This document shows positions 1-28,555 of a DNA stretch of 64,000 bases, one piece after another. Where the stretch lies: the NCBI GenBank assembly GCA_965215145.1, contig OZ244038.1, positions 956,579 through 1,020,578 on the forward strand, in the 5' to 3' direction. The notes below the pieces were generated by a model that ran no database searches, was not told where the DNA came from, and was given only the letters and a program-made list of their open reading frames with translations. The position numbers and the translations under genes are program-made. Each line of letters starts with the position of its first letter. Position 1 is the first letter of the stretch. This stretch comes from Rhodothermales bacterium. Lineage in GTDB: Bacteria > Bacteroidota > Rhodothermia > Rhodothermales > JANQRZ01.

Positions 1-396
1 GCGGAGCTGGCCGCGAAGGGGCGTGCCGTGCCCGAGGAGTGGGCCGGCCGCCACGTCCTCCGCTACGAGCTCCGCCTCAAGCGGCAGCTCTCGCGGGAGT
101 TCGGCCGGACTGTGCGGGCCGCGGACCTCGCCGAGCCCGCCTTCCACAACGGCCTCGTCGAGCGCTGGCGGGACCGGTACGCCACGGTCCGCACCCGCCG
201 GCCGCTCCGGCTCCTCCGCGCCACGGGGACCCGCGAGCTCCGCGACGCCCTCGCCCTCCGCGGCGTCGAGGCCGAAGGCGGCCCGCACGCCGTGCGCGCG
301 GCCATCGACGCCGCGCGCGCCTCGGGCACGGTCGAGGCGGTCCCGGCCTCGCGGATGCGGTCGTGCTCCGGGGGCTCACGGCCTCGCCCGCGCTGA
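1..396 (+). CDS. 3' part of a mobile-element protein, possibly a replication-initiation (Rep)-type protein. The 5' end lies outside the window and the gene is probably frameshifted.
   Basis: Open from the window edge with strong third-position GC bias (..HVLRYELRLKRQLSREFG..). After about position 340 the coding-like signal moves to the frame of ORF 39..467 (..LTEESDLVAELGRAVEEAAARSMA*). The functional call rests only on weak motif resemblance. Confidence 0.35.
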   Translation, partial: AELAAKGRAVPEEWAGRHVLRYELRLKRQLSREFGRTVRAADLAEPAFHNGLVERWRDRYATVRTRRPLRLLRATGTRELRDALALRGVEAEGGPHAVRAAIDAARASGTVEAVPASRMRSCSGGSRPRPR

Positions 397-506
397 CGGA
401 GGAGTCCGACCTCGTCGCCGAGCTCGGGCGCGCCGTCGAGGAGGCCGCGGCCCGGTCGATGGCCTAGCTCGCTCATCCCACCACGCCCTACAAACACATC
501 CACGTC

Positions 507-782
507 ATGCCCAACTTCGACTACTACGCCGTTCACCGCGGCCGCAACCCCGGCGTCTACGCCACCTGGCCCGCCTGCAAGGAGCAGGTCGAGGGAATCG
601 ACGGCGCCGCTTGGCACGGCTTCCACGACCTCCAGGCCGCCCGCCGCTTCGCACGGACGGGGCGGTATTCCCCGGGCGACCTCGAGCGCACGGTCGAGAT
701 CCGCGTCGGCCACGAGGTCGCCCACCACGCGCTCACGCCCGAGGTCGAGCGTGCCCTCCGCGAGGGCGGCCTCCTCCCCTGA
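507..782 (+). CDS. Stand-alone RNase H1 N-terminal / caulimovirus viroplasmin (Cauli_VI-like) hybrid-binding domain protein, 91 aa
   Basis: The N-terminus YYAVHRGRNPGVYATWPACKEQVEGIDGAAWHGFHDLQAARRF matches the YYAV-x-GR-x-x-GIY-x-W-x-E-x-x-x-V-x-G...K-x-F...A-x-x-F pattern of this domain. No RNase H catalytic domain follows. Confidence 0.7.
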   Translation: MPNFDYYAVHRGRNPGVYATWPACKEQVEGIDGAAWHGFHDLQAARRFARTGRYSPGDLERTVEIRVGHEVAHHALTPEVERALREGGLLP

Positions 783-840
783 CCCCTCCGTGTACCGCGG
801 TACACACCACACCGAACCCAAACCACCAACACCCAGCGCC

Positions 841-2211
841 ATGAAGGACAAACTTAACCCGACCGAACAGAAGACGCTCAACCGCCACGAGCGCGCCATC
901 CGCGCCGCGCGTAAGGCGTGGCTCGCCATCGGCCTCGCCCTCGCCGCCATCCTCGACGGCCGCCTCTACCGCGCCTCCCACCGCAGCTTCGAGGCCTACG
1001 CCGAGGACCGGTGGGAGCTCTCCCGCCGCCGGGCCTACCAGTTCGTCGACGGCGCCCGCGTCGCCGAGCGCCTCACGGCCGCCGGCCTCCCCGCCCCGGA
1101 GTGCGAGCGCCACGCCCGCCCCCTCACGAAGCTCGATGCGGCCGACGCCGAGCGCGTCTGGCGCGCCGTTCTCGCTCCCTCAGGAGACGTGGGGCAGGTG
1201 ACGGCCGAGCGCGTGACGTACGCGGTCAAGGAAATCGAGGAGGGTCGCCGGTCCCAGGACACGGAGTCCGGCGGCCGCCTCTTCCTCTCCGCCGAGGCCG
1301 AGGCCGAGATCGCCGCCGCCCGCGAGGCCGCGACGACGGGCCGCCCCCGCGCGGCCGCCCCCCTCGTCGCCGTACCCCCACCGTCCTACGACGGGGCCCC
1401 GGACGGCTCCGGCCCTGTCCTCGTCCCGGCTCGCCACGTCGCGGGGGCGCTGGATCTCGAGACGATCCACGACCTCCGCGACGCCTTCGAGGCGCACTAC
1501 CGCGCGGCCGGGAAGCGGGGGCCCACGCTGAACCCGACGAACGAGCACGTCGGGTGGACGCTGTGGACGCTGAACCCGACGACGGGCTGCACGTGGGACT
1601 GCCCGTTCTGCTACGCCCGCGAGATCGCGGAGCTCCGCTACCCCCAGGGGTTCGCCCCCACCGTCCACCCCGAGCGGCTCCTCGCCCCGGCGAACACCCG
1701 CATCCCCGAGGCGCTCCGGGACGACCCCGCCGCGCGCCGGGTCTTCCTCGGCTCGCAGACGGACTGGATGGACCCCAGCTTCGGGGACGACGTGATCCAG
1801 GCTGAACTCGACATGTGCCGGGCGAACCCGGAGTGGGAGTTCCTGACGCTGACGAAGCAGCCCGCACGGCTGAAGGACTTCGAGTTCCCGCCGAACGTGT
1901 GGGTCGGGGTGACGGTGACGCGGCAGGGGCAGGTGCGGGCGATGGAGGAGGCCCTCGCCGAGGTCGAGGCCGCCGTGCGGTGGGTCTCGTTCGAGCCGCT
2001 CCACGGGTCCGTCGCGCTCTCGCGGCCGGAGCTCATCGACCTCTTCGTGATCGGGGCGGAGCGGAAGACGGCGCAGCGGAAGTCGGTGAAGGCGACGGAG
2101 GCAGCGTGGGTGGACGCGCTCCGGCTGCAGGCGCGGGCCGTGGGCGCGGCGGTGTGGGAGAAGGACAACCTCCGGGTCCACCTCCGGGAGATGCCCGAGC
2201 CGCGGCGGTGA
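841..2211 (+). CDS. Phage Gp37/Gp68 family (DUF5131) protein with an N-terminal extension of about 200 aa
   Basis: The C-terminal half reads WTLNPTTGCTWDCPFCYA (CX3CX2C) ...FLGSQTDWMDP...EWEFLTLTKQP...VWVGVTV...VSFEPL, typical of DUF5131. The N-terminal part (SFEAYAEDRWELSRRRAYQFVDGARVAERL) looks like an HTH/ParB-associated DNA-binding region. I chose the ATG at 841 over the ORF-track start at 751, which overlaps the previous gene. Confidence 0.8.
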   Translation: MKDKLNPTEQKTLNRHERAIRAARKAWLAIGLALAAILDGRLYRASHRSFEAYAEDRWELSRRRAYQFVDGARVAERLTAAGLPAPECERHARPLTKLDAADAERVWRAVLAPSGDVGQVTAERVTYAVKEIEEGRRSQDTESGGRLFLSAEAEAEIAAAREAATTGRPRAAAPLVAVPPPSYDGAPDGSGPVLVPARHVAGALDLETIHDLRDAFEAHYRAAGKRGPTLNPTNEHVGWTLWTLNPTTGCTWDCPFCYAREIAELRYPQGFAPTVHPERLLAPANTRIPEALRDDPAARRVFLGSQTDWMDPSFGDDVIQAELDMCRANPEWEFLTLTKQPARLKDFEFPPNVWVGVTVTRQGQVRAMEEALAEVEAAVRWVSFEPLHGSVALSRPELIDLFVIGAERKTAQRKSVKATEAAWVDALRLQARAVGAAVWEKDNLRVHLREMPEPRR

Positions 2212-2482
2212 GGGCACCCCGCCGGCCGGCCGGCGTCGGTGCACGGGGGGCGGGGCGCCGGGGGCGAAGGGAGCCCCGGCTCTCGCCTCCTCAGCGGCCC
2301 CAGGAGCCCCGATACAGCCTCCTCCGGGTCACACACACAAAGGGCAGCGGGCGGCGGCGGCCACAGGGCCGCTGAGGGCGCCGAGGTCGGAAGGCGAGGA
2401 GAGGCGAGGATCGCGCCGGTCGTCCTGATCGTCGCCCCTACCTGAGGCTGACGTACTGCAGGGGCGCGCCTCCTCAGCCCCC

Positions 2483-2823
2483 TCAGAGCTGCTTCCACGC
2501 CCACGCCGGCAGCGTGAGCGGGAGGGCGTCGTCCCCGTAGCACGGCCACTCGCCCGTCGCCTCGCACCGCGCGTACGTCCGCAGCGGCTCCTCGACCTGC
2601 CGCTACCCCGCCCGCAGCGCCTCGTCCTCCACGGCGTAGACGGCCACCCCGAACGGCGGCTCCTTCTCCGCCGCCACCACGAGGACCTCCCGCACCGCGA
2701 GCCCGAGGTGCTCCAGGGCGTGGGCGTAGAGGGCGAGCTGGCGGAAGTACCCGTAGTTCCACGCCGCGCGCTCGAAGGCGTCGGCCGAGGCGTCCCGGCT
2801 CGTCTTGAGGTCGACGAGGGCAC
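2483..2823 (-). pseudogene. Remnant of a PD-(D/E)XK (DUF3799 / RecE-like exonuclease) gene. It is 5'-truncated and has an in-frame TAG.
   Basis: My translation of the minus strand gives ..LVDLKTSRDASADAFERAAWNYGYFRQLALYAHALEHLGLAVREVLVVAAEKEPPFGVAVYAVEDEALRAG*RQVEEPLRTYARCEATGEWPCYGDDALPLTLPAWAWKQL*. It has the D-x-K and Y-x-x-Q-x-A-x-Y motifs, an in-frame stop at 2603..2605, and no N-terminal half or start codon. Confidence 0.6.
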
Positions 2824-2894
2824 CGCGACCAGGTGCGATAGTAGCCGTCTATAGTCTCAGGGTCGGCGAGGGCGTCAGAGGCGGCTGTCTGTTG

Positions 2895-2930: not shown

Positions 2931-2943
2931 TAACCTCTGAGCT

Positions 2944-3927
2944 ATGACTGCGACCCGCCGCGCCCTTCTCGACCTCCTTGCTGCCCGCTCGGGACAGACA
3001 CAGACCGAGTTGGCCAAGCGGGCCAGGGTGTCAACCCGCACGGCCCGCCGTCACCTCAGGGCGCTGGTGAAGGAGGGAACGGTCCTCGTCGAGGCCGACG
3101 GTCCGGCCTGCCGCTACCACCTCGCTCCCCACGCTTCACCCGCCGCTCCGCTCCCGCCCCTCACGGAGGGGGAGGCCGAGGCGCTCTCCGTCGCCGCCCT
3201 CGCCGCGAGGCCCCTGCTGGCGCCGACGCCGCTCGCACCGGCCCTCGACGCCGCAGCGGCCAGGCTCCGCCGGGCCTGGCTCGCCGACGTCTTCTCGTTT
3301 GAGCCCGAGGCGGAGGCTGCCCTCTGGAGCTTCGACGGCGCCGCGGGCGGGGAGACGCCCCCGGCCGCGGCCACCCTCTTCCGCGACCTCCTCCGTGCCG
3401 TCCGCGACCAGAACCCCATCATCGCCGACTACTTCACGGCGAGCCGGGGCGTGCTCTCGCGGGGTCGGCGGCTCCACCCGCTCGGCTTCCTCGTCCGCAA
3501 TGGGGCGTGGATCGTCGCTGCGTACGACCCGGCGAAGGGGAGGCCGCTCGACTTCGCCCTCGCGGGCTTCCGCGCCGTCACGCGGCTGGAGGACGAGCAC
3601 GCGCCCCGCCCCGAGGGCTTCGACCTTCACGCCTACGCCCGCGACCGCTTCGGCGCCCTCGCCGGTGACGCCGTTCACGAGGTCCGCCTCCTCGTTGAGG
3701 TGGAGGCCGTCCCGTACTTCGAGCGGAAGACGTACAACCCCACGCAGCAGATCGAGGAGCGGCGCTTGGACGGTCGGGCGGTAGTGTCGTTCGAGGTGGA
3801 GGGGCTGGAGTCCGTGGCGTCGTGGTGCCTCTCGTGGGGGCCGAAGCTGCGGGTGCTGGCGCCGACGGAGCTGGCCGCGCGCGTGGCGGAGGCGCACCGG
3901 GAGGCCGCGGCCCGCTACGCCACCTAA
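2944..3927 (+). CDS. HTH + WYL domain transcriptional regulator (YafY-like), cas-associated
   Basis: The N-terminal winged-HTH reads LLDLLAARSGQTQTELAKRARVSTRTARRHLRALVKEG. The central WYL-like block reads RRLHPLGFLVRNGAWIVAAYDPAKGRPLDFALAGFRAV. The gene sits directly upstream of and co-directional with cas1. Confidence 0.8.
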   Translation: MTATRRALLDLLAARSGQTQTELAKRARVSTRTARRHLRALVKEGTVLVEADGPACRYHLAPHASPAAPLPPLTEGEAEALSVAALAARPLLAPTPLAPALDAAAARLRRAWLADVFSFEPEAEAALWSFDGAAGGETPPAAATLFRDLLRAVRDQNPIIADYFTASRGVLSRGRRLHPLGFLVRNGAWIVAAYDPAKGRPLDFALAGFRAVTRLEDEHAPRPEGFDLHAYARDRFGALAGDAVHEVRLLVEVEAVPYFERKTYNPTQQIEERRLDGRAVVSFEVEGLESVASWCLSWGPKLRVLAPTELAARVAEAHREAAARYAT

Positions 3928-3946
3928 CTTCAGACGCCAACGCCCG

Positions 3947-4975
3947 ATGAAGCCGAACAAGCCGCCCGTGATGCCGCTCCGCAACCGGATCTCCGTGTTC
4001 GCAGTGGAGCGGGGGAACGTCGAGGTGGACGGGCAGGCCCTCGTCGTCACGGACGTCCGCGGCGTGCGGGCACAGCTCCCCGTTGGGGCCTCGGCCGTGC
4101 TGATGCTGGAGCCGGGCACGACGATCACGCACGCCGCCGTCAAGCTCTGCGCCGAGAACCGGACGCTCATCATCTGGACGGGGGAGGCCGGCGTCCGCCT
4201 CTACAGCGCCGGGCAGGAGGGGGCGGCCCACTCGTATCGCCTCCTCCGGCAGGCCCGCCTCGCCCTCGACCCGAAGAGCCGGCTGGCCGTCGCCCGCGAG
4301 ATGTACCGGGTGCGGTTCTACGAGGAGCCCCCGCAGAAGCGCTCCATCGAGCAGCTCCGCGGGATGGAGGGCGCCCGCGTCCGCGCCACCTACCGCCGCC
4401 TCGCCGAGGAGTACGGCGTCGTGTGGGAGGGGCGTAACTACGACCGCTCGGACTGGGGGAGCCAGGACCCCGTGAACCGGGCCCTCTCCGCGGCGAACGC
4501 CTGCCTCTACGGGGTCTGCCACGCCGCCATCCTCATCGCGGGCTACAGCGCCGCGCTCGGGTTCATCCACACGGGCTACCCCCTCGCGTTCGTCCACGAC
4601 CTCGCCGACCTCTACAAGATGGAGCTCGCCGCGCCGACGGCGTTCCGCCTCGCGGCTGAGGACGAGGGCAACCTCGGCATGCGCGTCCGCCACGCCCTCC
4701 GCGACGGGTTCCGCCGCGTCAAGCTCCTGGAGGGGCTCATCCCCGGCATCGAGTCGCTCCTCGACGCAGGGGAGGGCGGGGCCGGGATGCCGGAGGAGCT
4801 GGGCGGGTGCCGGGTCGAGACGGCCGCGCCCGAGGACGCGCCGTGGCAGCGGAAGCCGCGCCTCCCGGACGCCCGCGCCGTCGCCGCCGAGCTCCACGGC
4901 GACCGCCCGCCCACGCCGCCGCGCCCGAAGCCGCCCTCGCCCCTCGACGACGCCGACGACGGCCTGCCCTTCTGA
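3947..4975 (+). CDS. cas1: CRISPR-associated endonuclease Cas1, type I-E, with a C-terminal Pro-rich extension
   Basis: PLRNRISVFAVERGNVEVDGQALVV...PVGASAVLMLEPGTTITHAAVKLCAENRTLIIWTGEAGVRLYSAG is collinear with E. coli Cas1e (YgbT). The product is 342 aa. Confidence 0.95.
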   Translation: MKPNKPPVMPLRNRISVFAVERGNVEVDGQALVVTDVRGVRAQLPVGASAVLMLEPGTTITHAAVKLCAENRTLIIWTGEAGVRLYSAGQEGAAHSYRLLRQARLALDPKSRLAVAREMYRVRFYEEPPQKRSIEQLRGMEGARVRATYRRLAEEYGVVWEGRNYDRSDWGSQDPVNRALSAANACLYGVCHAAILIAGYSAALGFIHTGYPLAFVHDLADLYKMELAAPTAFRLAAEDEGNLGMRVRHALRDGFRRVKLLEGLIPGIESLLDAGEGGAGMPEELGGCRVETAAPEDAPWQRKPRLPDARAVAAELHGDRPPTPPRPKPPSPLDDADDGLPF

Positions 4976-4978
4976 GCG

Positions 4979-5290
4979 ATGGTAGTCTACAGCCTCACGA
5001 ACGCACCGCAGCGCACGCGCGGCCTCCTCTCGCGGTACTGCCTGGAGGTACGGGCCGGCCTCTTCGTCGGCCGCCTCGACAAGCGGATGCGGCTGAAGCT
5101 GTGGGCGGCCGTCGTCGAAGGCGCCGGCGCAAAGACGACGGCGGTGATGGCGTGGAGCCGCCCGACGGCGCAGGGCTACGCCTTCAAGAGCTTCGGCCCC
5201 GCCGCCTGCGCGCCCGTCCGCTACGACGGCCTCTGGCTCGTCGCGGAGAAGACCACACCGAAGCAGCGCCCCGCCTCCGATGCCTCCTGA
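4979..5290 (+). CDS. cas2: CRISPR-associated endoribonuclease Cas2, type I-E
   Basis: MVVYSLTNAPQRTRGLLSRYCLEVRAGLFVGRLDKRMRLKLW...AVMAWSRPTAQGYAFKSFG...YDGLWLV is collinear with E. coli Cas2e (YgbF). The gene starts 3 nt after the cas1 stop. Confidence 0.9.
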   Translation: MVVYSLTNAPQRTRGLLSRYCLEVRAGLFVGRLDKRMRLKLWAAVVEGAGAKTTAVMAWSRPTAQGYAFKSFGPAACAPVRYDGLWLVAEKTTPKQRPASDAS

Positions 5291-8126
5291 GCACCTCCTC
5301 TACCGCCTCTGGGCTAAGACCAACGACTACGAGCGCCAGCAGGCCGAGCGCCGCGGTGAACCCGTGCCCGAGTGGACGCGCCACCCGCTCCCGCTCCACC
5401 TCCTCGATGTTGGCCTCGTCGCCGAGGCGTGGCTGGAGGCGGACCCGCACCTCCTCGACCGCTTCTGCGCCCTCTGGCCCGCGGCCGACCGCGAGGCCAT
5501 TCGCCGCGCCCTCGTCCTCACGGCCGCCGCGCACGACGTGGGGAAGGTGTACCCGGAGTTTCAGGTGAAGTCCGAGCCGGGATGGGCGCACGGCTACGGC
5601 GACGCCGGCCTCGTGCGAGTGGACGGCGCCGGTTTCGACCACGGGGCGGGGACCGCGCGGATCTTCGGGGCGCTCTTCGGGGGCCGCTACGGCGCGGCAG
5701 AGGGCGTGGACCCGAATTGGGAGCCGCTCCTCCCGCTCATTCGCGTCGGAGCCGGCCACCACGGCACGCTCTACGCCGACCTCCCGCCGGACCCCGACAC
5801 ACTCGCCGCGCGCCGCCTCGCGCTCATCCTGGCGCTGCTGGACGAGCTCGCCCACCACTGCGGGCCGCCGCTGCCGCTGCCGCCGGACCCGCCCGCGGCC
5901 TTCCTCCTCCTCACCGCCGGCTTCGTCTCCGTCGCCGACTGGTTCGGCTCGAACACGGACTCCTTCCCGCCCGGCCCCGAGGTCACGAGCCGGACCGAAG
6001 CCGACGCCTACCTCGCCCACCACCACGACGGCGAGACCGTGATAACGGCGCTCCGCAGCGCCGGCCTCCTCGCGGGGTTCGACGCGCCGGCCGGGTTCGC
6101 GGAGCTGCTGAGTCCGGAGGGTGAGCGGTGGGAGCCGCGCCCCGGCTTCCAGGCGGAGGCGTGCGCCGTCCCCTTCGGCGCCGAGGCCGGGCCGGAGATC
6201 GCCGTCATCGAGGCGCCGATGGGGCTGGGCAAGACGGAGATCGCCCTCTACCTCGCGGCGCAGGCGCTCGGCCGCGGCACGGCCTCGGGGCTCTACTTCG
6301 CCCTCCCGACGCAGGCGACCTCGAACGCCCTCTTCGAGCGGGTCGAGCGCTACGCCGAGCGCGTCAAGGGGGACGGCGACCTCGCCCTCGTCCTTGCCCA
6401 CGGCGCCAAGCGCTACTTCAAGGAGTACCGCCGCCTCCGTGCCCAAACCGGCCGGACCGTCTTCGACCGCGCCCGTCGCGCTGAGCACGACGACCCGAAT
6501 CCGCCCTCCGAGGTCGTCGCGCCGTCGTGGGTGCAGCCGTCGAAGCGGGCGCTGCTGGCTCCCGTCGGGCTCGGCACGATAGACCAGGCGCTGCTCGGGG
6601 CGATGGCCGTCAAGCACGGGTTCGTCCGGTTGTTCGGGCTGGCCCGGAAGGTCGTCGTCCTCGACGAGGTCCACGCCTACGACGCTTACATGGGCGTCCT
6701 GCTGGAGCACCTCCTCCGCTGGCTCGGCGCCCTCGGCGCGAAGGTCGTCCTTCTCTCAGCGACGCTCCCGAGCGGGCTCCGGCGGAAGCTCCTTGAGGCG
6801 TACGGCGTCGAGGACGTGCCCGAGGCCGATGGGTACCCGCAGCTCCTCCACGCGCCCCCGAGCGGCCCCGTCGCCGTCCTCACCGATCCAGCGCCGGAGA
6901 AGGCGGAGCAGAAGCCGGTGACGGTCGAGCCCGTCGAGGCCGCTGGCGACGCGGAGGCGCGGACGGCGGCGGGCGTGACGTGGGTTCGGGAGAAGGTGGG
7001 GGAGGGCGGGTGCGTCGCCTGGATTCGGAACACCGTCCGCGAGGCGCAGGCGGCCTACGAAGCCCTCCGCGCGGCCGGCGTCGAGGCCGACCTCCTCCAC
7101 GCCCGGTTCACCCGGCACGACCGGAACCAGAAGGAGGAGGAGCTGCTGGAGCGCTTAGGCAAGCCCGCGCCGGAGAACCCGAAGCGCCCGGCCGCCCGCG
7201 TCGTCGTCGCCACGCAGGTGATCGAGCAGAGCGTGGATGTGGACTTCGACGCGATGCTCTCGGACCTCGCCCCGGTGGACCTTCTCCTCCAGCGGGCCGG
7301 CCGCCTCTGGCGCCACGACCGCGGAGGCCGCCGCCACGGCCACACTAAACCCTTCCTCGGCGTGCTCATGCCCGACGCTGCCGGCCACGCCCGCCTCGAC
7401 TTTGGCACGAGCGTCTACGTCTACGACGCCGACACCCTCGCCCGCAGCGCCTGCCTCGTCCGCGAGCACCCGACGTGGACGCTGCCGGCCGCCTGCCGCA
7501 CCCTCGTCGCCGACCTCTACGACCGCGACGAGACGTACTGGACGCACGAGCGGATGGGCGTGGACGCCGACGCCCTCGCCCGCGCCCGCGAGCGCTTGGC
7601 CGAGCGAAGGCGGACGATGGAGAGCGTCGCCCGGCGAACGCTCCTCACCCCGCCCGACCAGATGCCCGTCACGCGGAAACCCCGCAATGACCGCAGCGAC
7701 GCCGGCGAGTACGTCGCCCTCACGACGCGCTACGGCGCCCACACCGCCGCCGCCGTCCTCTTCCGCCCGAGCCCGGCCGGGCCGGTGCCGCTCGGCCACG
7801 ACGGTGGGCCGCTCGCGGTCCCCTCGGAGGACAACTACCGCGCCCGCCTCGACGTGGAGGAGGCCGTCGCCCTCGCCTCGGTGAGCTTCCCGTGGTACGG
7901 CGAGCGGCCTGCTGAGTCCGTCCCGCCGCCGGGGCTCGACGCCCTCCACGGCTGGTGGCGCGAGACGCACCCCTACGACGACCGCCTCTTCCTCCTCCTC
8001 GGTTCCGACGGTTCCTTCGAGCACGAATGGGTAGAGGGGCGGTATGATTCCGAGACCGGCCTGACGGTCGCCCGCACCGCCGCCACGCCGCCTGCCCCCG
8101 AGCCCGTCCCCCTTGAGCACATCTAG
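5280..8126 (+). CDS. cas3: Cas3 HD nuclease / SF2 helicase, type I-E
   Basis: N-terminal HD motifs (HPLPLHLLDVG...AAHDVGKVYPEFQ...GAGHHG). Helicase motifs (APMGLGKTE, VVVLDEVHAYD, LLSATLP, VVVATQVIEQSVDVDFD). The ATG overlaps the cas2 stop by 11 nt. Confidence 0.9.
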   Translation: MPPEHLLYRLWAKTNDYERQQAERRGEPVPEWTRHPLPLHLLDVGLVAEAWLEADPHLLDRFCALWPAADREAIRRALVLTAAAHDVGKVYPEFQVKSEPGWAHGYGDAGLVRVDGAGFDHGAGTARIFGALFGGRYGAAEGVDPNWEPLLPLIRVGAGHHGTLYADLPPDPDTLAARRLALILALLDELAHHCGPPLPLPPDPPAAFLLLTAGFVSVADWFGSNTDSFPPGPEVTSRTEADAYLAHHHDGETVITALRSAGLLAGFDAPAGFAELLSPEGERWEPRPGFQAEACAVPFGAEAGPEIAVIEAPMGLGKTEIALYLAAQALGRGTASGLYFALPTQATSNALFERVERYAERVKGDGDLALVLAHGAKRYFKEYRRLRAQTGRTVFDRARRAEHDDPNPPSEVVAPSWVQPSKRALLAPVGLGTIDQALLGAMAVKHGFVRLFGLARKVVVLDEVHAYDAYMGVLLEHLLRWLGALGAKVVLLSATLPSGLRRKLLEAYGVEDVPEADGYPQLLHAPPSGPVAVLTDPAPEKAEQKPVTVEPVEAAGDAEARTAAGVTWVREKVGEGGCVAWIRNTVREAQAAYEALRAAGVEADLLHARFTRHDRNQKEEELLERLGKPAPENPKRPAARVVVATQVIEQSVDVDFDAMLSDLAPVDLLLQRAGRLWRHDRGGRRHGHTKPFLGVLMPDAAGHARLDFGTSVYVYDADTLARSACLVREHPTWTLPAACRTLVADLYDRDETYWTHERMGVDADALARARERLAERRRTMESVARRTLLTPPDQMPVTRKPRNDRSDAGEYVALTTRYGAHTAAAVLFRPSPAGPVPLGHDGGPLAVPSEDNYRARLDVEEAVALASVSFPWYGERPAESVPPPGLDALHGWWRETHPYDDRLFLLLGSDGSFEHEWVEGRYDSETGLTVARTAATPPAPEPVPLEHI

Positions 8127-8132
8127 CCGCCG

Positions 8133-10513: not shown

Positions 10514-10530
10514 ACCCAACCCCGACCGCC

Positions 10531-11760: not shown

Positions 11761-11764
11761 CGCC

Positions 11765-12514: not shown

Positions 12515-13193
12515 CCTCCTCCGCCTACCCCGACGTCACCGCCGCTGGCGCCACCTCGACCCGTACCAAGCCCACCAGCTCGCTTGGCAGGCGTTTCCCG
12601 GTGTGCCCCGCGGCGAGCGCCCGTTCCTCTTCAGCCTCGACGAGCGGGGGCCGCACCACAGCCTCCTCGTCCAGAGCACCCGCCCGCCGGACTGGGCCTT
12701 CCTCGACGGCGATGCCGACGTTCAGACGAAGGCGTTCGACCCGCACCAGATCCCTGCGGGCGAGCCGCTCCGGTTCTTCCTCCGGGCGAATCCGACCGTG
12801 GACCGGCGAGGCTTCGGCGACGGGAAAACGCGGCGGGTCGCCGTCGGTACGAACCCGGACCTCGCCTTCCGGCAGATGGGCCGCCCCGAGGACGCCCCCC
12901 GGACGCCCGCCGCGCGCGCCGAGTGGAGGGAGAGGGAGCTCCGGACGTGGATGCAGCGACAGGGCGAGCGTGGGGGGTTCGACGTCACCACCTGCGCGCC
13001 CGGCCCCATCGTGGGCCGCCGCGTGCAGCGCACGGAGGGGGGACGGCCCAAGGGCCGCCCGATGAAGTTCCACGAGGTGGAGTTCACCGGGACGCTGGAG
13101 GTGAGGGATCCAGAGGCGTTCGTGCGGTCCTATTCGGAGGGCGTAGGCAGGGGTCGTGCGTTCGGGTACGGCTTGCTGATGGTGCGCCCGTAG
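12501..13193 (+). CDS. cas6e: CRISPR RNA endoribonuclease Cas6e (CasE/Cse3)
   Basis: MLHLSLLRL...LDPYQAHQLAWQAFPG...FLFSLDE...HSLLVQS... and the C-terminal GVGRGRAFGYGLLMVRP are typical of Cas6e. The gene overlaps the cas5 end by 14 nt. Confidence 0.85.
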   Translation: MLHLSLLRLPRRHRRWRHLDPYQAHQLAWQAFPGVPRGERPFLFSLDERGPHHSLLVQSTRPPDWAFLDGDADVQTKAFDPHQIPAGEPLRFFLRANPTVDRRGFGDGKTRRVAVGTNPDLAFRQMGRPEDAPRTPAARAEWRERELRTWMQRQGERGGFDVTTCAPGPIVGRRVQRTEGGRPKGRPMKFHEVEFTGTLEVRDPEAFVRSYSEGVGRGRAFGYGLLMVRP

Positions 13194-13280
13194 TCAGAGG
13201 CCGCTTCGGCTCTTCGCAGTACCAACTCGAATTACCTGCTCTTTGACCGTTTGTATGCTCCTTGGTGCGTATTCTTTAGT
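13194..13280 (+). promoter_or_regulatory. CRISPR leader
   Basis: An 87-bp segment, locally AT-richer (..accaactcgaattacctgctctttgaccgtttgtatgctccttggtgcgtattctttagt), lies between the cas6e stop and the first repeat. Repeat degeneracy increases toward the opposite end of the array. Confidence 0.6.
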
Positions 13281-15208: not shown

Positions 15209-15278
15209 TTCAGCAGCGCCGAGGGAGCAGTGGCCTTCGCCGAGCAGGTAGGAGGCCAATCCTACGGTGTCTGAACCG

Positions 15279-15737
15279 CTAGAGCCGGACGATGGCGTGG
15301 GTGACGACGCCGAACACCCGGAGGTCCTGCCCCTCACCCACGTAGACCGGCGCGTACGCCGCGTTCGCCGACTCCAGGAACGCCCGCCGACGCGGCCCCC
15401 GCCCCTCCAGGCGCAGCCGCTTCACGAGGTACTCCCCGTCCACCGCCGCCACGACGACGTCGCCGTCCTTCGGCTCCCGCGCCCGGTCCACCACCAAAAG
15501 GTCGCCCTCCCCGATCCGGACCCCCTCCATCGAGTCCCCCTCGACCTCGACGAAGAACGTCGCCGCCGCGTCGCGGACGAGGTGCTCGTTGAGGTCGAGC
15601 TTCCGGTCGACGAACGCCTCGGCCGGCGAGGCGAACCCGGCGGCGGGGCGGGGGCGCAGCAGCGGGAGGGCGAGCGAGGACGCCTCCGCGCAGGCGAGGA
15701 AGCGGGCAGCGCGGAGAGGGTAACGGGCGGGCTCCAT
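15279..15737 (-). CDS. umuD: UmuD-like S24 peptidase (translesion polymerase V accessory subunit)
   Basis: PAAGFASPAEAFVDRKLDLNEHLVRDAAATFFVEVEGDSMEGVRIGEGDLLVVDRAREPKDGDVVVAAVDGEYLVKRLRL is collinear with E. coli UmuD. It has the A-G cleavage site, the Ser in GDSM and the Lys in VKRL. Start taken at MEPARYPL. Confidence 0.85.
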   Translation of the reverse strand: MEPARYPLRAARFLACAEASSLALPLLRPRPAAGFASPAEAFVDRKLDLNEHLVRDAAATFFVEVEGDSMEGVRIGEGDLLVVDRAREPKDGDVVVAAVDGEYLVKRLRLEGRGPRRRAFLESANAAYAPVYVGEGQDLRVFGVVTHAIVRL

Positions 15738-15851
15738 AGGAAGGCACGTGATGCAGGACGCGAGGGGGCGAAGGTAAGGTCGGGGAGAGCACGGGCGTCC
15801 TCCTTGTAGACACCGCCTCCCGAACCGGACGGACTCTCCCAAAGCGAGCGC

Positions 15852-17252
15852 TCAGCCGAACCGGACGCGCGGGAGCTCCCCCCACCTAGTCGTATAAGCC
15901 GGGCTCTTCGACTCGCGCCGCATCGCCCACGCCTGCCCCGTCTCCGCCTCGGCCTCCTCCCCGCGCGTTCCACAGGCTGCGAAGAACGCCGCCGGACGCC
16001 CCCCACCGCCCCGACCGTACCGGGCGTTGACGCGGTCCACCGCCGCGAGCAGCGCGTCTGCCTGTGCCCCCTCCCGCGCCGCGGCGAAGAGCCGGCCCTG
16101 CTCCGGCCGCGCCCGCGTGACATCGAGGACGACGACCCCGCACTTCCGGTACGGGTACGGCCGCCCCCGTCCGTCCCGCCCCTGCCACACCGTGTCCGTG
16201 AGCCTCCGGCACACCGCGAGCACCTCCGGCGTCCGGTTCGTCGCGCCCGCGAGCTCGGCGGCCAGCGCGCCCGAGCGGTGGGGGCCGCGCGCGCCCTCGT
16301 GGCCCGTGTTCAGGAAGACCTGCACGGCCCGCGCGGCGAGCCCCTCACGGCGCAGCGTCTCGCAGGCGCGGGAGGCGTGCGTGGCGACGGCCTCCCGGAC
16401 CTCGGCGAGCGCCGTCACGGGGCGGCCGAACGAGCGGCTCCGGACCATGCTCTTCCGTGGCGGGGGCGCCTCCTCCAGTGGGATGCACGAGAGGCCGCGG
16501 AGCTCCAGCACGGTACGGAGGCCGGTGACCCGGAGGTGCTGGCGGACCCACGCGTCCGGCCGGTCCCGGAGGTCCTTCGCCGTGGTCACCCCGAGCCCCA
16601 GGAGGCGGCGCCCGTAGGCGCGGCCGACCCCCCACACGTCGCCGACGGGCGTCGCGGCGAGGACGGCGTCGAGGGCGTGCGGGGGGAGGCCGTGGAGGGC
16701 GACGGCCGGCTCCTCCCCCCGCCTCGCGAGCCGCTTCGCGTGCACGCTCCCCACCTTCGCGAGCGTCTTCGTCGGGGCGACCGAGACGCGGACGGGGATC
16801 CCGGTCGCGCGGAGGACGGCGCGGCGGACCTCGCGGGCGAGCGCCGTGAGCTCGGCGTGGGCGCGGTGGGGGTCCGGTGGCGTGGGGAAGACGAGGAAGG
16901 CCTCGTCGATGGAGTAGACCTCGGCGCGGGGCGTGAAGCGCCGGAGCACGGCCATGACGCGGGCGCTCAGGTCAGCGTAGAGCGCGTAGTTCGAGCTGAA
17001 GACGACGGTGCCAACTGCCTCCAGCCGCTCGCGGACGCGGAAGTAGGGCGCGCCCATCTTCACGCCGAGGGCCTTGACCTCCTCGCTCCGGGCGACGACG
17101 CAGCCGTCGTTGTTGGAGAGGACGGCGACGGGGCGGCCGTGGAGGTCGGGGCGGAAGAGGCGCTCACAGGCGCAGTAGAAGTTCTCGCCGTCGACGAGGG
17201 CGAAGAGGCGGCGGGGGGGACCTGCGGGTCGGCTGTAGAGGGCAGGAGGCAC
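15852..17252 (-). CDS. umuC: Y-family DNA polymerase, UmuC/RumB-like
   Basis: LFALVDGENFYCACERLFRPDLHGRPVAVLSNNDGCVVARSEEVKALGVKMGAPYFRV is nearly collinear with the E. coli UmuC N-terminus. Confidence 0.9.
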   Translation of the reverse strand: MPPALYSRPAGPPRRLFALVDGENFYCACERLFRPDLHGRPVAVLSNNDGCVVARSEEVKALGVKMGAPYFRVRERLEAVGTVVFSSNYALYADLSARVMAVLRRFTPRAEVYSIDEAFLVFPTPPDPHRAHAELTALAREVRRAVLRATGIPVRVSVAPTKTLAKVGSVHAKRLARRGEEPAVALHGLPPHALDAVLAATPVGDVWGVGRAYGRRLLGLGVTTAKDLRDRPDAWVRQHLRVTGLRTVLELRGLSCIPLEEAPPPRKSMVRSRSFGRPVTALAEVREAVATHASRACETLRREGLAARAVQVFLNTGHEGARGPHRSGALAAELAGATNRTPEVLAVCRRLTDTVWQGRDGRGRPYPYRKCGVVVLDVTRARPEQGRLFAAAREGAQADALLAAVDRVNARYGRGGGGRPAAFFAACGTRGEEAEAETGQAWAMRRESKSPAYTTRWGELPRVRFG

Positions 17253-17300
17253 GGGAGGCAGACGCGCTGAGGGGGAGGGGCGGCCGACGTAACGGCGGGG

Positions 17301-17325
17301 GGCGTGACAGGAGCCGTGTCACGCC
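17301..17325. promoter_or_regulatory. Palindrome upstream of umuC (candidate operator or hairpin)
   Basis: GGCGTGACA-ggagccg-TGTCACGCC has 9-bp perfect arms and starts 49 nt upstream of the umuC ATG. I do not recognise it as a known LexA box. Confidence 0.25.
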
Positions 17326-17957
17326 CTCATTCTGGGGACCGCAGAAGTCCGTCCGAGCGGATGAGTGCGAGCACTCCGTCTACTCTGGAACGGAAAGGGA
17401 GGCTGTGCAGCGGTGGCGCATGGCTCCCCCGTGGTTCATCGGCAACCACCGCGTACCGGGCGGGTGGTGCCACACGTCCTCCCCCTCTGTGCAGCCTCCG
17501 GCGCACTGCCTACTATAGCCGAGTATTCGCAGATAGGCCCCTCGAAAAGGCGTCGCGCCGGGGGAAGGGGCAGACGTATTTCCCGCTCTGATCGGGCGCC
17601 CGTTTCGAGGGTACCCCGGTTCGGATCAAAGGCGACACACCGGACGCCGTGCGTGCCCACCCACGACGGAGCCCTGCTTCCCCTCGGGAGGCGGGGCTCC
17701 GCGCTTCTACGGCCGGGGAGGTCCCGGCCCCGACGGTGCTCTGTGCACCGCGGTTCACATCCCCGCTAACCAAGAGGTCCCCCATGCCCACGCGCTCCCG
17801 CGGCCCGCCGCGACCACACCCGCAGGCGGCACGCCCGCCTAGACCTACTCCTACACAAACGAAGCCCGCTCCCCCTGCTGAGGGAGCGGGCTTCGCCGTT
17901 TCCGGCCGGTCGGTGATGACGCACCGACCGGCCTCACACGAAGACCAAGAGGTCACC

Positions 17958-18974
17958 ATGCAGTACGCGATCAAGCTACACGACGAACAAGCCCTCGTCC
18001 ACAGATCCACTCGCAGCCACCCCCTCAGCGTCCGCCTCGTCCGTGAGAGCGGCACGGCCTACCGGCTCCCCGCCGCCGACGCCTACGCGAAGCGCCTCGC
18101 CGAGGAGGCGGAGCGCTGGCTCGACCACGTCCGCGAGCGGAGCCGGATGAAGGAGGAGACCCTCGTTCGGAAGGCCCTCCACAGCGTCGCCTTCAGCCTC
18201 CGCCACCGCGCCCACGACCTCGCCGTCCCGACGAAGCTCGCCGGCACGGCGAAGCACCAGCGCCAGCTCTGGGAGGCCGTCCGCGCCCGCGTCCCCCTCG
18301 GTACCCCGCTCGACATCCACGAGGAGCGGGACGGCCAGGGTGACGGCGGACGCGTCCGCCTCGCTGTCTCCCACGACGGCGAGCGGCTCGGCGAGGTCCA
18401 ACCGAAGCACGTCGGCTGGTTCGCTCCGCTCGTCCCCTTCGGGGCCGGCGTCTTCCTCACCCGCGTGACCGGCCACGAGACGGAGGGGTACCGCCTCGGC
18501 ATGAACGTCTGCTTCGGCCGTGTAGGAGGCGCCGTTAGCGCGCTCCGGCACGCGCTCGGCACCGACCTCGGCGGCGACGGCAGCGGCCCGCAGAGCGGCG
18601 CTGAGGCGGCCGTAGCGCTCCGCCCGGTGCCCGCTCCGGCGCGGGTCCACGGCGGCGACGGGGCGGCCGGGTCCCCGCCCGCTCTGGCTTCCGAGGACGT
18701 TCGCCTCTGGCGTGACCGGGACGGCACGGCCCACGCCTCCGTCCCCCACGCCGTCCGGCACTCGCCGACGGGCGTCGAATGGGGCTACGGCGGCAGTGGC
18801 CCGGCCGACCTCGCTCGGAGCGTGCTCCTCCGCTTCGCCGACGAGGCCACGGCCGAGCGGCTCTACCAGCTCTACAAGGCCGAGGTCATCGCCCGTGTCC
18901 CCGAGGCTGGAGGCACGATCCGCGCCGCCGACGTGCGGGCGTGGCTCGCTGTCCACACCGACGGCCCCTGCTGA
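17958..18974 (+). CDS. Hypothetical protein with a C-terminal WGYGGSGP (DUF6166-like) domain
   Basis: A 338-aa ORF starting at MQYAIKL, preceded by AAGAGG. The C-terminus reads HSPTGVEWGYGGSGPADLARSVLLRF...LYQLYKAEVIARVP. The central block reads KHVGWFAPLVPFGAGVFLTRVTGHETEGYRLGMNVCF. It is co-directional with ardC and radC. Confidence 0.6.
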   Translation: MQYAIKLHDEQALVHRSTRSHPLSVRLVRESGTAYRLPAADAYAKRLAEEAERWLDHVRERSRMKEETLVRKALHSVAFSLRHRAHDLAVPTKLAGTAKHQRQLWEAVRARVPLGTPLDIHEERDGQGDGGRVRLAVSHDGERLGEVQPKHVGWFAPLVPFGAGVFLTRVTGHETEGYRLGMNVCFGRVGGAVSALRHALGTDLGGDGSGPQSGAEAAVALRPVPAPARVHGGDGAAGSPPALASEDVRLWRDRDGTAHASVPHAVRHSPTGVEWGYGGSGPADLARSVLLRFADEATAERLYQLYKAEVIARVPEAGGTIRAADVRAWLAVHTDGPC

Positions 18975-19014
18975 TCCCCCGTAGGAGAGCCTACATCCAC
19001 AACCACACCCGACC

Positions 19015-19054
19015 GAGAGGCCGGGCCCTGCCACATGGCGGGGTCCGGCCTCTC
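19015..19054 (+). terminator. Intergenic stem-loop (GAGGCCGGGC...GGGGTCCGGCCTC family)
   Basis: gagaggccgggccc-tgccacatggcg-gggtccggcctctc forms a stem of about 14 bp. It lies between the 17958 gene and ardC. There is no T-tract. Confidence 0.4.
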
Positions 19055-19069
19055 CCATTCGTACCGACC

Positions 19070-20068
19070 ATGACGATTAAGCACACCACGACCAACCACG
19101 CCGCCCCGAGCCAGCTCGCCCTCGGGCTCACGACCCCGCTGCTCTCCCGCGCCGAGCAGGCCGCCCGCCCCGACCGCCAGAGCCGCCTCGACGCTGCCAG
19201 CGCCGTCCTCGCCCGCGGCCTCTCCGGCGTCCGCGACGACCCCGCCGCGCTCGGGGCCTACCTCGCCTTCCGCGCCCACTTCCGCAGCTACTCCCCCCGC
19301 AACGCCCTGCTCATCTGGATGCAGCGCCCGACGGCCCGCTACTGCATGGGCCTCCGGGCGTGGACGAGGCACGGCCGCCGCGTCCGGCGCGGCGAGCGCG
19401 GGATCACGGTCCTCGCGCCCGTCCTCAGGAAGCCGACGGCGGAGGAAGTCGCGGCCGGCGAGGACCCCGAAGAGCGTGTGCCGGCGGGCTTCCGGACGGC
19501 GACGACGTTCGACTACGAGCAGACGGAGCCCGTGGACGACGACGCCCTCGTCTACAGCCCGCCCGTGCCCCGTCTGGGCACCGAGGGGCCGGAGGGGCTC
19601 CTCGGGCGGCTAGAGGCCGCGGCCGAGCGAGTGGGCTGTTCTGTCCACTACACGGCCCTCGGCTATGCCGACGGGTGGTACCGCGCCTCCGACCGGTCGA
19701 TCTGCATCCGAGCCGGCCTGAGCGGGGCCGACCGGGCGGCTGTGCTGTGCCACGAACTGGCGCACGCCGTCGCCCACTCTCGGGGTGAGCGCCCGGACGA
19801 CGACCCACAGGAGACGCCGGCATCCGAGGCCGCAGGCGTGCGGAGCCGGGCGTCTGAGGAGCTCCAAGCCGAGGGGGCGGCCTACGTCGCGCTCGCCGCG
19901 CTCGGGCTCGACACGGCGCGCGCCAGCCTGCCCTACTTGAAAGGCTGGGCCGAGGGAGACGACGACGCCCTCTCAGGAGAGCTCGCCGCCATCGACCGGA
20001 TCGCCGGCCGGCTGCTCGCACTCATCGACGGGCCAGCCGGAGAGGACGGCACGGAGGCCACCGCCTAG
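19070..20068 (+). CDS. ardC: ArdC-like antirestriction protein (N-terminal ssDNA-binding DUF1738 domain plus C-terminal HExxH metalloprotease-like domain)
   Basis: The N-terminal block reads FRSYSPRNALLIWMQRPTARYCMGLRAWTRHGRRVRRGERGITVLAP. The C-terminal block reads AAVLCHELAHAVAHS. Confidence 0.8.
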   Translation: MTIKHTTTNHAAPSQLALGLTTPLLSRAEQAARPDRQSRLDAASAVLARGLSGVRDDPAALGAYLAFRAHFRSYSPRNALLIWMQRPTARYCMGLRAWTRHGRRVRRGERGITVLAPVLRKPTAEEVAAGEDPEERVPAGFRTATTFDYEQTEPVDDDALVYSPPVPRLGTEGPEGLLGRLEAAAERVGCSVHYTALGYADGWYRASDRSICIRAGLSGADRAAVLCHELAHAVAHSRGERPDDDPQETPASEAAGVRSRASEELQAEGAAYVALAALGLDTARASLPYLKGWAEGDDDALSGELAAIDRIAGRLLALIDGPAGEDGTEATA

Positions 20069-20102
20069 CCGCACCCCCACTCAACACGTACCGACTCACC
20101 AG

Positions 20103-20140
20103 CCACGAGGCCGGGCTCCTTCTGGGGTCCGGCCTCGTGG
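20103..20140 (+). terminator. Intergenic stem-loop, second copy of the GAGGCCGGGC...GGGGTCCGGCCTC hairpin
   Basis: ccacgaggccgg-gctccttctggggt-ccggcctcgtgg is followed by cgtttcc. It lies between ardC and radC. Confidence 0.45.
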
Positions 20141-20156
20141 CGTTTCCGAACCAGCC

Positions 20157-20717
20157 ATGAACACGACCCACACAGCTCGCTCCCGCACCCGTCACCCCTA
20201 CCGCGACCGCCACACGCCCGACCTCTTCGCCTCTACACCGACGGGCCGCGCCGAGCCCGCCGCACCGCCCGCCCTGCAGGAGCGCTTGCGAGTGCCCGTC
20301 TTCTCGGTACGCCTCGTCCGCGAGCGCGACCACCTGACCGAGCAGATCACCTCCCCCGCCGACGCCGCTCGGTTGTGCTGCGAGCTCCTCGATGGCCTCG
20401 ACCGCGAGGTCTTCCTCGTCGTCGCACTGTCCACGGCGAGCCGCGTCATCGGCGCTCACGTCTGCCACGTCGGCAGCCTCGATGCCTCGATCGCGTGCGG
20501 GAGGGAGGTATTTCGGTTTGCTGTCCTAACTTGTGCGAAATCAACAATTGTCGCCCATAATCATCCCTCGGGCAACCTCGAACCGTCGCGGGCGGACGTG
20601 GAGGTGACTCAGCAACTGAAGGCGGCGGGGGAGGCGCTGGGGATTGGACTCCTTGACCACGTCATCGTCGGGTTCGAGGGGGCCTACACCTCGCTCGCCG
20701 AGCGGGGTCTACTCTAG
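20157..20717 (+). CDS. radC: RadC-like JAB/MPN domain protein
   Basis: The JAMM motif reads STIVAHNHPSGNLEPSRADVEVTQQL, followed by LLDHVIVG. Confidence 0.85.
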   Translation: MNTTHTARSRTRHPYRDRHTPDLFASTPTGRAEPAAPPALQERLRVPVFSVRLVRERDHLTEQITSPADAARLCCELLDGLDREVFLVVALSTASRVIGAHVCHVGSLDASIACGREVFRFAVLTCAKSTIVAHNHPSGNLEPSRADVEVTQQLKAAGEALGIGLLDHVIVGFEGAYTSLAERGLL

Positions 20718-20838
20718 GGCGTTAGGTTCATGCCAGAGCTTCACACGCCCCTGTAATCCTCGGTAGGCGCGCGGCCTATGTAACACGGAACACTCGCTAC
20801 GGCCCGGACGCCGGGTTGATCGCGGGAAGACGGGGGAT

Positions 20839-20860
20839 TGTTGTACCCATGTTGTACCCA
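20839..20860. repeat. Perfect tandem 11-mer TGTTGTACCCA x2
   Basis: Seen directly at 20839..20849 and 20850..20860, 46 bp from the tRNA-Val 3' end. Confidence 0.9.
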
Positions 20861-20905
20861 CATAACCGCAAGCCCCTCCTAGCAATGGCTTGCCAAGAGG
20901 GGTAG

Positions 20906-20979
20906 TGGGTCCGGCTGGATTCGAACCAGCGACCCCTCGCGTGTGAGGCGAGTGCTCTAAACCACTGAGCTACGGACCC
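20906..20979 (-). tRNA. tRNA-Val (anticodon CAC)
   Basis: The reverse complement folds as a cloverleaf: GGGTCCG-TA-GCTC-AGTGGTTTA-GAGC-A-CTCGC-CTCACAC-GCGAG-GGGTC-GCTGG-TTCGAAT-CCAGC-CGGACCC-A. CCA is not encoded. Confidence 0.9.
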
Positions 20980-21732: not shown

Positions 21733-21748
21733 CGGGGGAGGGGCCGGG

Positions 21749-28517: not shown

Positions 28518-28555
28518 GGGCGACCGCCCTTTCGAGCGGTCTCAGCGCAGGGCTG

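Follow-up and report, generated by a model that had tools for sequence, protein, structure and literature searches.

The first 20.9 kb of the 64,000-nucleotide stretch of Rhodothermales bacterium DNA analyzed here (hereafter, the window; GenBank assembly GCA_965215145.1, contig OZ244038.1, positions 956,579 to 1,020,578) carry a type I-E CRISPR-Cas locus together with umuC-umuD genes and a DUF6166-ArdC-RadC gene block that abuts a tRNA-Val(CAC) gene. With a probability that we put at roughly 55%, positions 1 to 20904 constitute a mosaic, probably decayed, mobile-element-derived defense island at a tRNA-Val hotspot. At least three parts would make up the mosaic. The umuC-umuD genes and the DUF6166-ArdC-RadC block would represent a partial, inverted copy of the core of a Rhodothermales integrative element, the genes of which, by analogy with plasmid ArdC, would protect and process the single-stranded DNA of an element as it enters a new host. 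The second part, a self-contained type I-E cassette extending from a WYL regulator through 30 spacers and intact in appearance, would provide adaptive immunity for the host. The third part would comprise the left-hand phage-like or defense-candidate genes plus a nuclease pseudogene. In relatives, the ArdC block would be the conserved core of tRNA-integrating, integrase-bearing elements with a slot after radC in which defense systems are exchanged, and the association of CRISPR-Cas with ArdC would thus be a case of the known tendency of defense systems to move along with such elements or to gather next to them.

The window belongs to a chromosome of 72% G+C and was placed in the Rhodothermales on the basis of holA comparisons, the best matches being Rhodothermales metagenome-assembled genomes (MAGs) at 75 to 76% identity, with Roseithermus sacchariphilus at 61%. 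Genes were called from codon-position G+C bias and annotated with Pfam, PHROGs, NCBIfam, and PADLOC. The region under study, positions 1 to 20979, ends on the right with the tRNA gene, which is followed by genes conserved in the order:

20905-20979, minus strand: tRNA-Val(CAC) (ARAGORN; Rfam, 73.6 bits; alignment with relatives)
21073-21774, minus strand: extracytoplasmic function sigma factor (Pfam)
21749-22813, minus strand: holA (Pfam)

Beyond holA are found genes for a DinB-family protein and then a 4Fe-4S protein. A first-pass annotation of the window, which had proposed that the region is a tRNA-Val-flanked mobile island, listed a sigma factor, holA, and nuoI as the core genes past the tRNA; the first two stand, while "nuoI" is confirmed only as a 4Fe-4S dicluster protein. 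In a comparison set of 28 Rhodothermales loci anchored on holA (related loci are given here by L numbers), the Fer4, holA, and sigma factor genes are syntenic in most and DinB2 is so in nine, with tRNA-Val(CAC) following the sigma factor gene wherever the relatives' contigs reach far enough. The 3′ end of the window's tRNA-Val faces radC across 187 bp, and it is there that synteny breaks, homology in the alignment with relatives stopping at the tRNA-Val 3′ end. The comparison with relatives lacking the region, advised in the first-pass annotation, revealed such genomes: in L001, L002, and Roseithermus L004, the tRNA-Val is directly followed by Memo-like and DUF2520 genes, these relatives being of other species, only 61 to 76% identical in holA; L001 and L002 additionally have tRNA-Asn and tRNA-Leu genes there. 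The 28 loci contain no match to any of 18 proteins encoded by positions 1 to 20900, and the relatives' Memo-like and DUF2520 genes have no match in the window. Judged by synteny, the region left of tRNA-Val is accessory.

The same site is occupied differently elsewhere. In L027 (Rhodothermales MAG BA12), a tyrosine integrase gene with an arm-binding domain lies 136 bp after the orthologous tRNA-Val, and in several other relatives 2.6 to 8 kb are wedged between the tRNA/sigma factor genes and DUF2520/Memo. From these locus comparisons, tRNA-Val(CAC) is an insertion hotspot in the Rhodothermales. The L027 island is a different one at the same site: after its integrase (L027 positions 12510 to 18241) come C5 and N6 DNA methyltransferase genes and a PAPS-reductase-like gene, and no attachment (att) repeat was detected in the available 8 kb. 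Two candidate signals at tRNA-Val were set aside. L005 has two near-identical full-length tRNA-Val(CAC) genes 6 kb apart (6406 to 6480 and 12433 to 12507), with metabolic genes (3-keto-disaccharide hydrolase, DUF1990, RDD) between them; a duplication of the tRNA is the apparent cause, and the case was rejected as evidence of a mobile element. The divergence of the 3′ half of the window's tRNA-Val, a conceivable sign of an att core supplied by an element, was not decisive because differences, among them a compensatory G7:C66 pair, extend to the 5′ half.

These data bear on the possibility that an old chromosomal segment was brought to tRNA-Val by inversion or rearrangement, the CRISPR-Cas locus being chromosomal with old element debris nearby. 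The G+C content, G+C at third codon positions (GC3), and codon usage are indeed almost as in the rest of the window, neither an att repeat nor an integrase is present, and the closest available relatives are only ~75% identical in holA, which leaves ample time for rearrangements. However, the break falls exactly at the tRNA 3′ end, the site that receives integrase-bearing DNA in L027, and the genes at the break belong to a multicopy, integrase-associated block, so that we consider a simple rearrangement improbable.

The block in question and its neighbors in the window are as follows:

15279-15842, minus strand: umuD, S24 autoproteolytic subunit (NCBIfam NF007621, 136 bits versus a cutoff of 110; Pfam Peptidase_S24)
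15852-17252, minus strand: umuC, Y-family polymerase (Pfam IMS, IMS_C, DUF4113)
17649-18974, plus strand: DUF6166 protein, first gene of the block (Pfam DUF6166; homology to relatives from ~18045)
19070-20068, plus strand: ArdC-like protein (open reading frame [ORF] from 18974 or 19070; Pfam ArdcN and Peptidase_M78; PHROG anti-restriction protein)
20157-20717, plus strand: RadC-like protein with a JAB domain, ending the block (Pfam RadC, E = 3.7e-36)
20839-20860, no strand: TGTTGTACCCA x2, a direct repeat in tandem, within the 187 bp (less G+C-rich) that separate radC from the tRNA

The ArdC-like protein combines an ArdC-N single-stranded DNA (ssDNA)-binding domain, matched by Pfam in part (profile positions 36 to 120 of 123), with a zincin metallopeptidase domain carrying HExxH, in which H228, E229, and H232 are invariant. 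It is identical (100%, 332 aa) to database protein P0001 and has more than 120 close homologs, nearly all of them metagenomic, the named ones coming from Rubrivirga and Rubricoccus. Proteins with ArdC-N plus a metallopeptidase and RadC-domain proteins occur chiefly in conjugative elements and phages and have been proposed to act by binding ssDNA as it enters and shielding it (PMC5512222). A tRNA-Arg(CCG) called by ARAGORN within ardC (19355 to 19424) was taken as a probable false positive in G+C-rich coding sequence because Rfam finds no tRNA there. The TGTTGTACCCA tandem repeat is possibly a binding site for a recombinase (e.g., an arm site) or a regulator. The umuC gene is transcribed ahead of umuD, the two being separated by 9 bp. 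This arrangement reverses both the classical umuD-umuC and that of Rubrivirga marina (L082), where S24 and then a 240-aa gene come before umuC. The window's umuC is 50% identical to this integrase-adjacent umuC of L082.

In L082, L083, and L084, the DUF6166-ArdC-RadC block is colinear with that of the window at ~70% nucleotide and 46 to 74% aa identity (46 to 54% for the DUF6166 protein in all three; 68 to 69% for RadC in L082 and L083). Three assemblies have the block twice, and at least two of these have both copies on a single contig. The two copies of one genome share 74 to 82% identity and are approximately as divergent as copies from different genomes, which fits distinct coresident mobile lineages. 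These comparisons support the DUF6166-ArdC-RadC block being a multicopy module that would move horizontally. A tyrosine integrase gene adjoins the block or its ArdC-like gene in three loci (L082, L092, and the distant L099), and a UmuD-like S24 gene neighbors the block in three relatives, with umuC in one. Two small genes (61 to 102 aa and 171 to 176 aa) precede DUF6166 in most relatives with gene calls; tblastn with the L082, L083, and L084 proteins finds neither in the window. The contexts of the block in relatives are:

L082 (Rubrivirga marina): upstream, tyrosine integrase, umuC, 240-aa gene, S24, and the two small genes; downstream, ArsR plus sulfur/redox cargo
L083: upstream, OmpA and very large proteins; downstream, a different complete type I-E locus
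L085: upstream, efflux and cupredoxin genes and S24; downstream, HNH, HKD-SNF2 (DrmD-like), and an MmeI-type enzyme
L086: upstream, unknown proteins; downstream, a GmrSD-family protein, a PDC-S37/Hhe helicase, and MmeI
L091: upstream, quinolinate phosphoribosyltransferase and other metabolic-type genes; downstream, nothing recognizably defensive
L092: upstream, tRNA-Leu(CAG), integrase, and a small gene; downstream, HmaC/DUF499
L099 (distant): integrase beside the ArdC-like gene
L106: upstream, tRNA-Met ~6.4 kb away; downstream, a type ISP restriction-modification (R-M) system
L107: upstream, glycosyltransferases and SRAP; downstream, a type I R-M system plus ZorA

Defense systems thus lie downstream of the block in six of the eight contexts where the downstream side is visible, in one of them a type I-E system. 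The cargo after radC comprises type I, type ISP, and type IIL R-M systems, a GmrSD-family protein, defense proteins of the Hhe/PDC-S37 and HmaC/DUF499 types, ZorA of Zorya, and type I-E. In the latter case (L083), the first repeat begins ~300 bp after radC, and the Cas proteins are only 39 to 47% identical to those of the window. In the L083 locus (11849 to 20945), cas1-cas2 and a gene for a DnaQ-like exonuclease (DNA_pol_B_exo2) have an array on each side, and the second array is separated from cas3 by genes for a WYL regulator, a PIN-domain protein, and, weakly matched, a HicB-like protein. In L106, radC (11084 to 11541) is frameshifted and split into two tblastn segments, i.e., a pseudogene.

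A broader reading of these contexts, which we advance tentatively and at less than even odds, is that there is an undescribed family of tRNA-integrating Rhodothermales elements with a DUF6166-ArdC-RadC core and a slot after radC for defense cargo that may include a complete type I-E system. The two small genes would usually precede the core, and some copies would have a divergent S24/UmuD-like gene and some a tyrosine integrase gene. The window would then hold a member or a rearranged descendant of the family, still or until recently moving type I-E between hosts and carrying anti-restriction and adaptive immunity together.

The cas locus of the window is made up of the following genes:

2944-3927, plus strand: winged helix-turn-helix-WYL-WCX regulator, first gene of the cas operon (Pfam WYL, WCX, HTH_24; PADLOC CRISPR-associated WYL)
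3947-4975, plus strand: cas1e (NCBIfam TIGR03638, 347.9 bits versus a cutoff of 215.6)
4979-5290, plus strand: cas2e (NCBIfam TIGR01873, 65.2 bits versus a cutoff of 33.15)
5280-8126, plus strand: cas3, HD nuclease plus superfamily 2 helicase (Pfam Cas3_HD, DEAD, Cas3-like_C_2; NCBIfam cas3_core, 219 bits versus 102)
8133-9875, plus strand: cse1/cas8e, large subunit (Pfam CRISPR_Cse1, 81.8 bits versus a cutoff of 24.7)
9872-10513, plus strand: divergent cse2/cas11e, small subunit (family profile)
10537-11760, plus strand: cas7e, start approximate (Pfam Cas_CT1975, E = 3.2e-91; NCBIfam casC_Cse4, 269 bits versus 178)
11654-12514, plus strand: cas5e, ORF limits, start probably near 11770 (NCBIfam casD_Cas5e, 127 bits versus 69; Pfam Cas_Cas5d)
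12381-13193, plus strand: cas6e, ORF limits, start probably near 12504 (NCBIfam casE_Cse3, 111 bits versus 45; Pfam CRISPR_assoc)
13194-13280, plus strand: array leader, 87 bp, directly upstream of repeat 1 and visibly less G+C-rich than its surroundings
13281-15148, plus strand: CRISPR array of 31 near-perfect 29-nt repeats, CTCCTCCCCGCGCAGGCGGGGATGACCCC, and 30 spacers

The gene order is therefore WYL regulator-cas1-cas2-cas3-cse1-cse2-cas7-cas5-cas6e followed by leader and array, cas1-cas2 lying upstream of cas3 and not at the canonical end of the operon. By its gene content, the type I-E locus is complete, as the first-pass annotation had it, with all eight Cas families, leader, and array found at 2944 to 15148; cse2 was identified with a family profile. 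Searches with the single sequence of the 9872 to 10513 ORF gave no match, and its single-sequence AlphaFold model (pLDDT, the predicted local distance difference test, 47.8) was unusable for a fold search. The profile of 25 family members matches the Cse2 chain 3wa8_A in the PDB (E = 0.0014) and, weakly, 4h79 and 2zca, and 13 of the 25 members match Pfam CRISPR_Cse2, evidence that is weaker than for the other Cascade subunits. The cse1 product scores slightly under the cutoff of NCBIfam casA_cse1 (64.2 versus 70.05 bits).

A WYL regulator also heads the operon in L087 and L088. L087 is the closest cas locus (Cas1 89%, Cas2 69%, Cas3 68%, and WYL 59% identical) and keeps the WYL-cas1-cas2-cas3 layout, but it lies beside genes for UvrB, FIST, a sensor kinase, and a PDC-M26A-like ATPase, and its nucleotide sequence becomes homologous to that of the window only within the WYL gene. 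No ArdC block is present in L087 within 10 kb upstream of cas1, the contig ending on the downstream side. Because the L087 neighborhood differs, the cas cassette is not tied to the ArdC block and occurs in other genomic surroundings as well.

This distribution also speaks to a functional coupling of the two modules, in which the ArdC-RadC block would, e.g., regulate or assist adaptation or interference. The block does adjoin type I-E in two genomes, those of the window and L083. Yet the two cas loci share only 39 to 47% identity and lie on opposite sides of the block, five other block copies are beside unrelated defense systems and two beside none, and L087 has its cas genes without the block over the 10 kb upstream of cas1, its downstream side being cut off by the contig end. 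We disfavor coupling and regard it as very improbable.

Within the array, the spacer length is 32 nt in 28 cases and 33 nt in one, with a final spacer of 40 nt; the repeat at the leader-distal end is degenerate, the final repeat having two mismatches. The irregular last spacer (15080 to 15119) contains CCCCCTAC x4. None of the 30 spacers targets the window itself or matches INPHARED phages, and the three leader-proximal ones have no match in IMG/VR. The comparison with phages and plasmids that the first-pass annotation had suggested hence yielded no target, the only PLSDB matches being array-to-array ones with actinobacterial plasmid CRISPRs, mostly from Streptomyces, which indicates that similar I-E arrays are plasmid borne elsewhere. 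One spacer (13676 to 13707) has a 17-nt exact match to ardC of related elements; it was rejected as chance because its overall 23/32 equals the background maximum of the other spacers.

To the left of the cas locus are:

1-396, plus strand: ORF without assigned family, 3′ end only, running off the left edge of the window (codon-position G+C pattern fitting plus frame 1)
507-782, plus strand: small protein with an RNase H1 N-terminal (viroplasmin, Cauli_VI) domain (Pfam PF01693, E = 6.6e-17)
751-2211, plus strand: DUF5131 (phage Gp37/Gp68-type) protein (Pfam PF07505, E = 1.7e-28; PHROG 2045)
2603-2848, minus strand: truncated PDDEXK/exonuclease VIII-like remnant, a pseudogene (DUF3799 profile; PHROG 412, exonuclease VIII)

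The N-terminal half (~265 aa) of the DUF5131 protein is uncharacterized, and the protein also matches the PADLOC defense-candidate models PDC-M41B and PDC-M30B. The nuclease remnant covers only positions 118 to 198 of the 233-position DUF3799 profile, which points to decay. The ORF ending at 396, which the first-pass annotation had read as a Rep-like fragment, has no match in Pfam, PHROGs, or a search of 5.8 billion proteins. The other gene identifications of that annotation in the region, for the most part placed at or near the positions found here, namely, the viroplasmin-domain protein, the Gp37/Gp68 gene, the nuclease remnant, umuC and umuD, ArdC, and RadC, agree with the profile matches listed above, as does its view of a cassette flanked by element-type genes, phage-like on the left and umuDC-DUF6166-ardC-radC on the right. 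A search of a viral contig collection with the ArdC-like and DUF5131 proteins gave no useful match.

No ORF of positions 1 to 20979 has an integrase domain, and the left end of the island lies beyond the window. Exact k-mers and ungapped scans with the present, ancestral (relatives'), and L027 versions of tRNA-Val were used in the att search: the 3′ end of the tRNA has no exact copy of at least 12 nt in the window, and the best ungapped match, 21/32, is at background. Genes for a type IV secretion system (T4SS), coupling protein, or relaxase are absent from the window, and the 10 kb on each flank of ardC likewise show no T4SS or relaxase gene in the seven related loci for which genes were called. 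The idea that the genes adjoin a leading-region-like module of an integrative and conjugative element (ICE) was therefore not borne out.

The geometry of the region also differs from that of its relatives. In L092, the only relative with both integrase and tRNA visible, the integrase abuts the tRNA, where the window has radC, and the orientation of the block relative to the tRNA is opposite. The site beside umuDC is occupied by an integrase in L082 and by the CRISPR array in the window. The arrangement of the element family, with the integrase at the S24 end, the tRNA beside the integrase, and the cargo after radC, is not that of the window. In composition, the region appears nearly host-like (GC3 of 0.93 versus 0.955), with a slightly higher tetranucleotide distance that is inflated by the array and by the reference profile having been built from the comparison set. 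This is compatible with a long stay in the host or with exchange among members of one high-G+C clade.

Much of the above can be set against the view that the whole region is one intact integrative, possibly conjugative, element in tRNA-Val, with type I-E as its cargo and the integrase and second att site further to the left. In support of it, the entire 20.9 kb are absent from the orthologous site in relatives, related ArdC-block elements carry integrases and defense cargo, including type I-E, and all of the cas, umuDC, ardC, and radC genes are intact ORFs. However, 21 kb contain no integrase or att copy; an integrase adjoins the tRNA in L092 and in the unrelated L027 island, whereas radC does so here; T4SS and relaxase genes are missing from the window and from the 10-kb flanks of ardC in the loci with gene calls; one gene is a pseudogene remnant and two conserved genes of the block are missing; and the composition is host-like. 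We consider an intact element unlikely.

We favor instead the mosaic, probably decayed island described at the outset. Its signs of mosaicism and decay are the PDDEXK fragment, the two missing small genes, the opposite orientation, and the presence of the L087 cas genes in a different neighborhood, and because of the decay signs and the lack of a visible integrase or att site, the window copy is probably no longer a single self-mobile unit. Of the original proposal of a mobile island at tRNA-Val, what holds is the accessory nature of the region, the tRNA hotspot, and the element-linked block; a single coherent mobile unit is unproven, with no integrase or att site in the window and a nearly host-like composition. 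Several points weigh against the mosaic interpretation. The left end is outside the window, and an integrase and att site just beyond coordinate 1 would make the region one intact element. The composition gives no sign of separate origins of the modules. The six-of-eight cargo count comes from just eight contexts and has no formal background rate to be compared with. For ArdC, RadC, and DUF6166, the functions are predictions from family annotation only, and CRISPR immunity is likewise predicted from the genes, no spacer target having been found.

Other observations concern the remainder of the window. An IS4/IS5-family transposase gene (25450 to 26505, minus strand; DUF4096 N-terminal part at 26131 to 26505) has a 15-bp unit, GAGCGCTACGTCTCG, perfectly repeated in tandem (x15.2) at 25916 to 26143 (100% identity, in frame, five codons per unit). 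The same gene has shorter in-frame repeats of 15 bp x3.5 at 25607 to 25658 and 12 bp x2.8 at 26446 to 26478, the expansion being unusual for a transposase gene. Another perfect 15-bp tandem repeat, TGCGCCTCGACGGCC x4.7 (100% identity), lies at 52019 to 52089 near the start of a 794-aa ORF. Two paralogous proteins of ~560 and ~620 aa encoded at 26688 to 30412 (minus strand) have C-terminal type IX secretion system sorting (Por_Secre_tail) domains, which fit placement in the Bacteroidota/Rhodothermota.

Overall, the region adds a Rhodothermota case to the accumulating evidence that complete CRISPR-Cas systems, type I-E among them, reside on islands that are or once were mobile and not in the stable chromosome. 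The ArdC/RadC block could serve as a marker for defense islands and integrative elements in a phylum that has received little study. Should the element family prove real and active, anti-restriction for its own entry and defense of the host on one element would make a compact case of conflict between mobile genetic elements. Island-borne type I-E is already established, and the new points are modest: the phylum, the WYL-headed noncanonical cas order, and the Rhodothermales-specific DUF6166-ArdC-RadC block as a recurrent neighbor of defense cargo.

The premise in the first-pass annotation that type I-E loci are usually regarded as chromosomal is weak in view of GI-24 of classical Vibrio cholerae, a 17-kb excisable island with integrase and att sites, of the 88% of Vibrionaceae I-E loci assigned to mobile elements (McDonald et al. 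2019, PMC6360697), and of the Streptomyces plasmid arrays. Like GI-24, the window has a complete type I-E system inside a genomic island that is absent from relatives, in the case of GI-24 from related strains. GI-24 differs in having an integrase, attL/attR, and excision shown by PCR, none of which is visible in the window, which in turn is from the Rhodothermota and has a WYL-headed, cas1-cas2-first order and ArdC/RadC/UmuDC companions. With ArdC of the IncW plasmid pSa and the proteins described by Iyer et al. 2017 (PMC5512222), the window shares ArdC-N plus a zincin HExxH domain with a RadC JAB gene alongside, genes that are typical of elements entering cells as ssDNA (PMC5512222). As differences, the ArdC-N match in the window is partial, neither a plasmid nor a T4SS context was detected, and the anti-restriction role is predicted.

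The type I-E systems of Escherichia coli K-12 and Thermus thermophilus have the same eight Cas families, 29-nt repeats, and 32-nt spacers, and the window's repeat resembles the E. coli type. In contrast to these systems, cas1-cas2 come before cas3 and not after cas6e, WYL heads the operon, the array directly follows cas6e, and Cse2 is highly divergent.

Conserved element cores with exchangeable defense cargo are known from hotspot 5 of the SXT/R391 ICEs and from the P2/P4 hotspots. These have other core genes than the Rhodothermales block, for which no conjugation or phage-structural genes were seen, and in the window the CRISPR cargo is on the umuDC side, not downstream of radC. The likeness lies in a core flanked by a slot where unrelated defense systems swap, as the Rhodothermales block is in six of its eight contexts.

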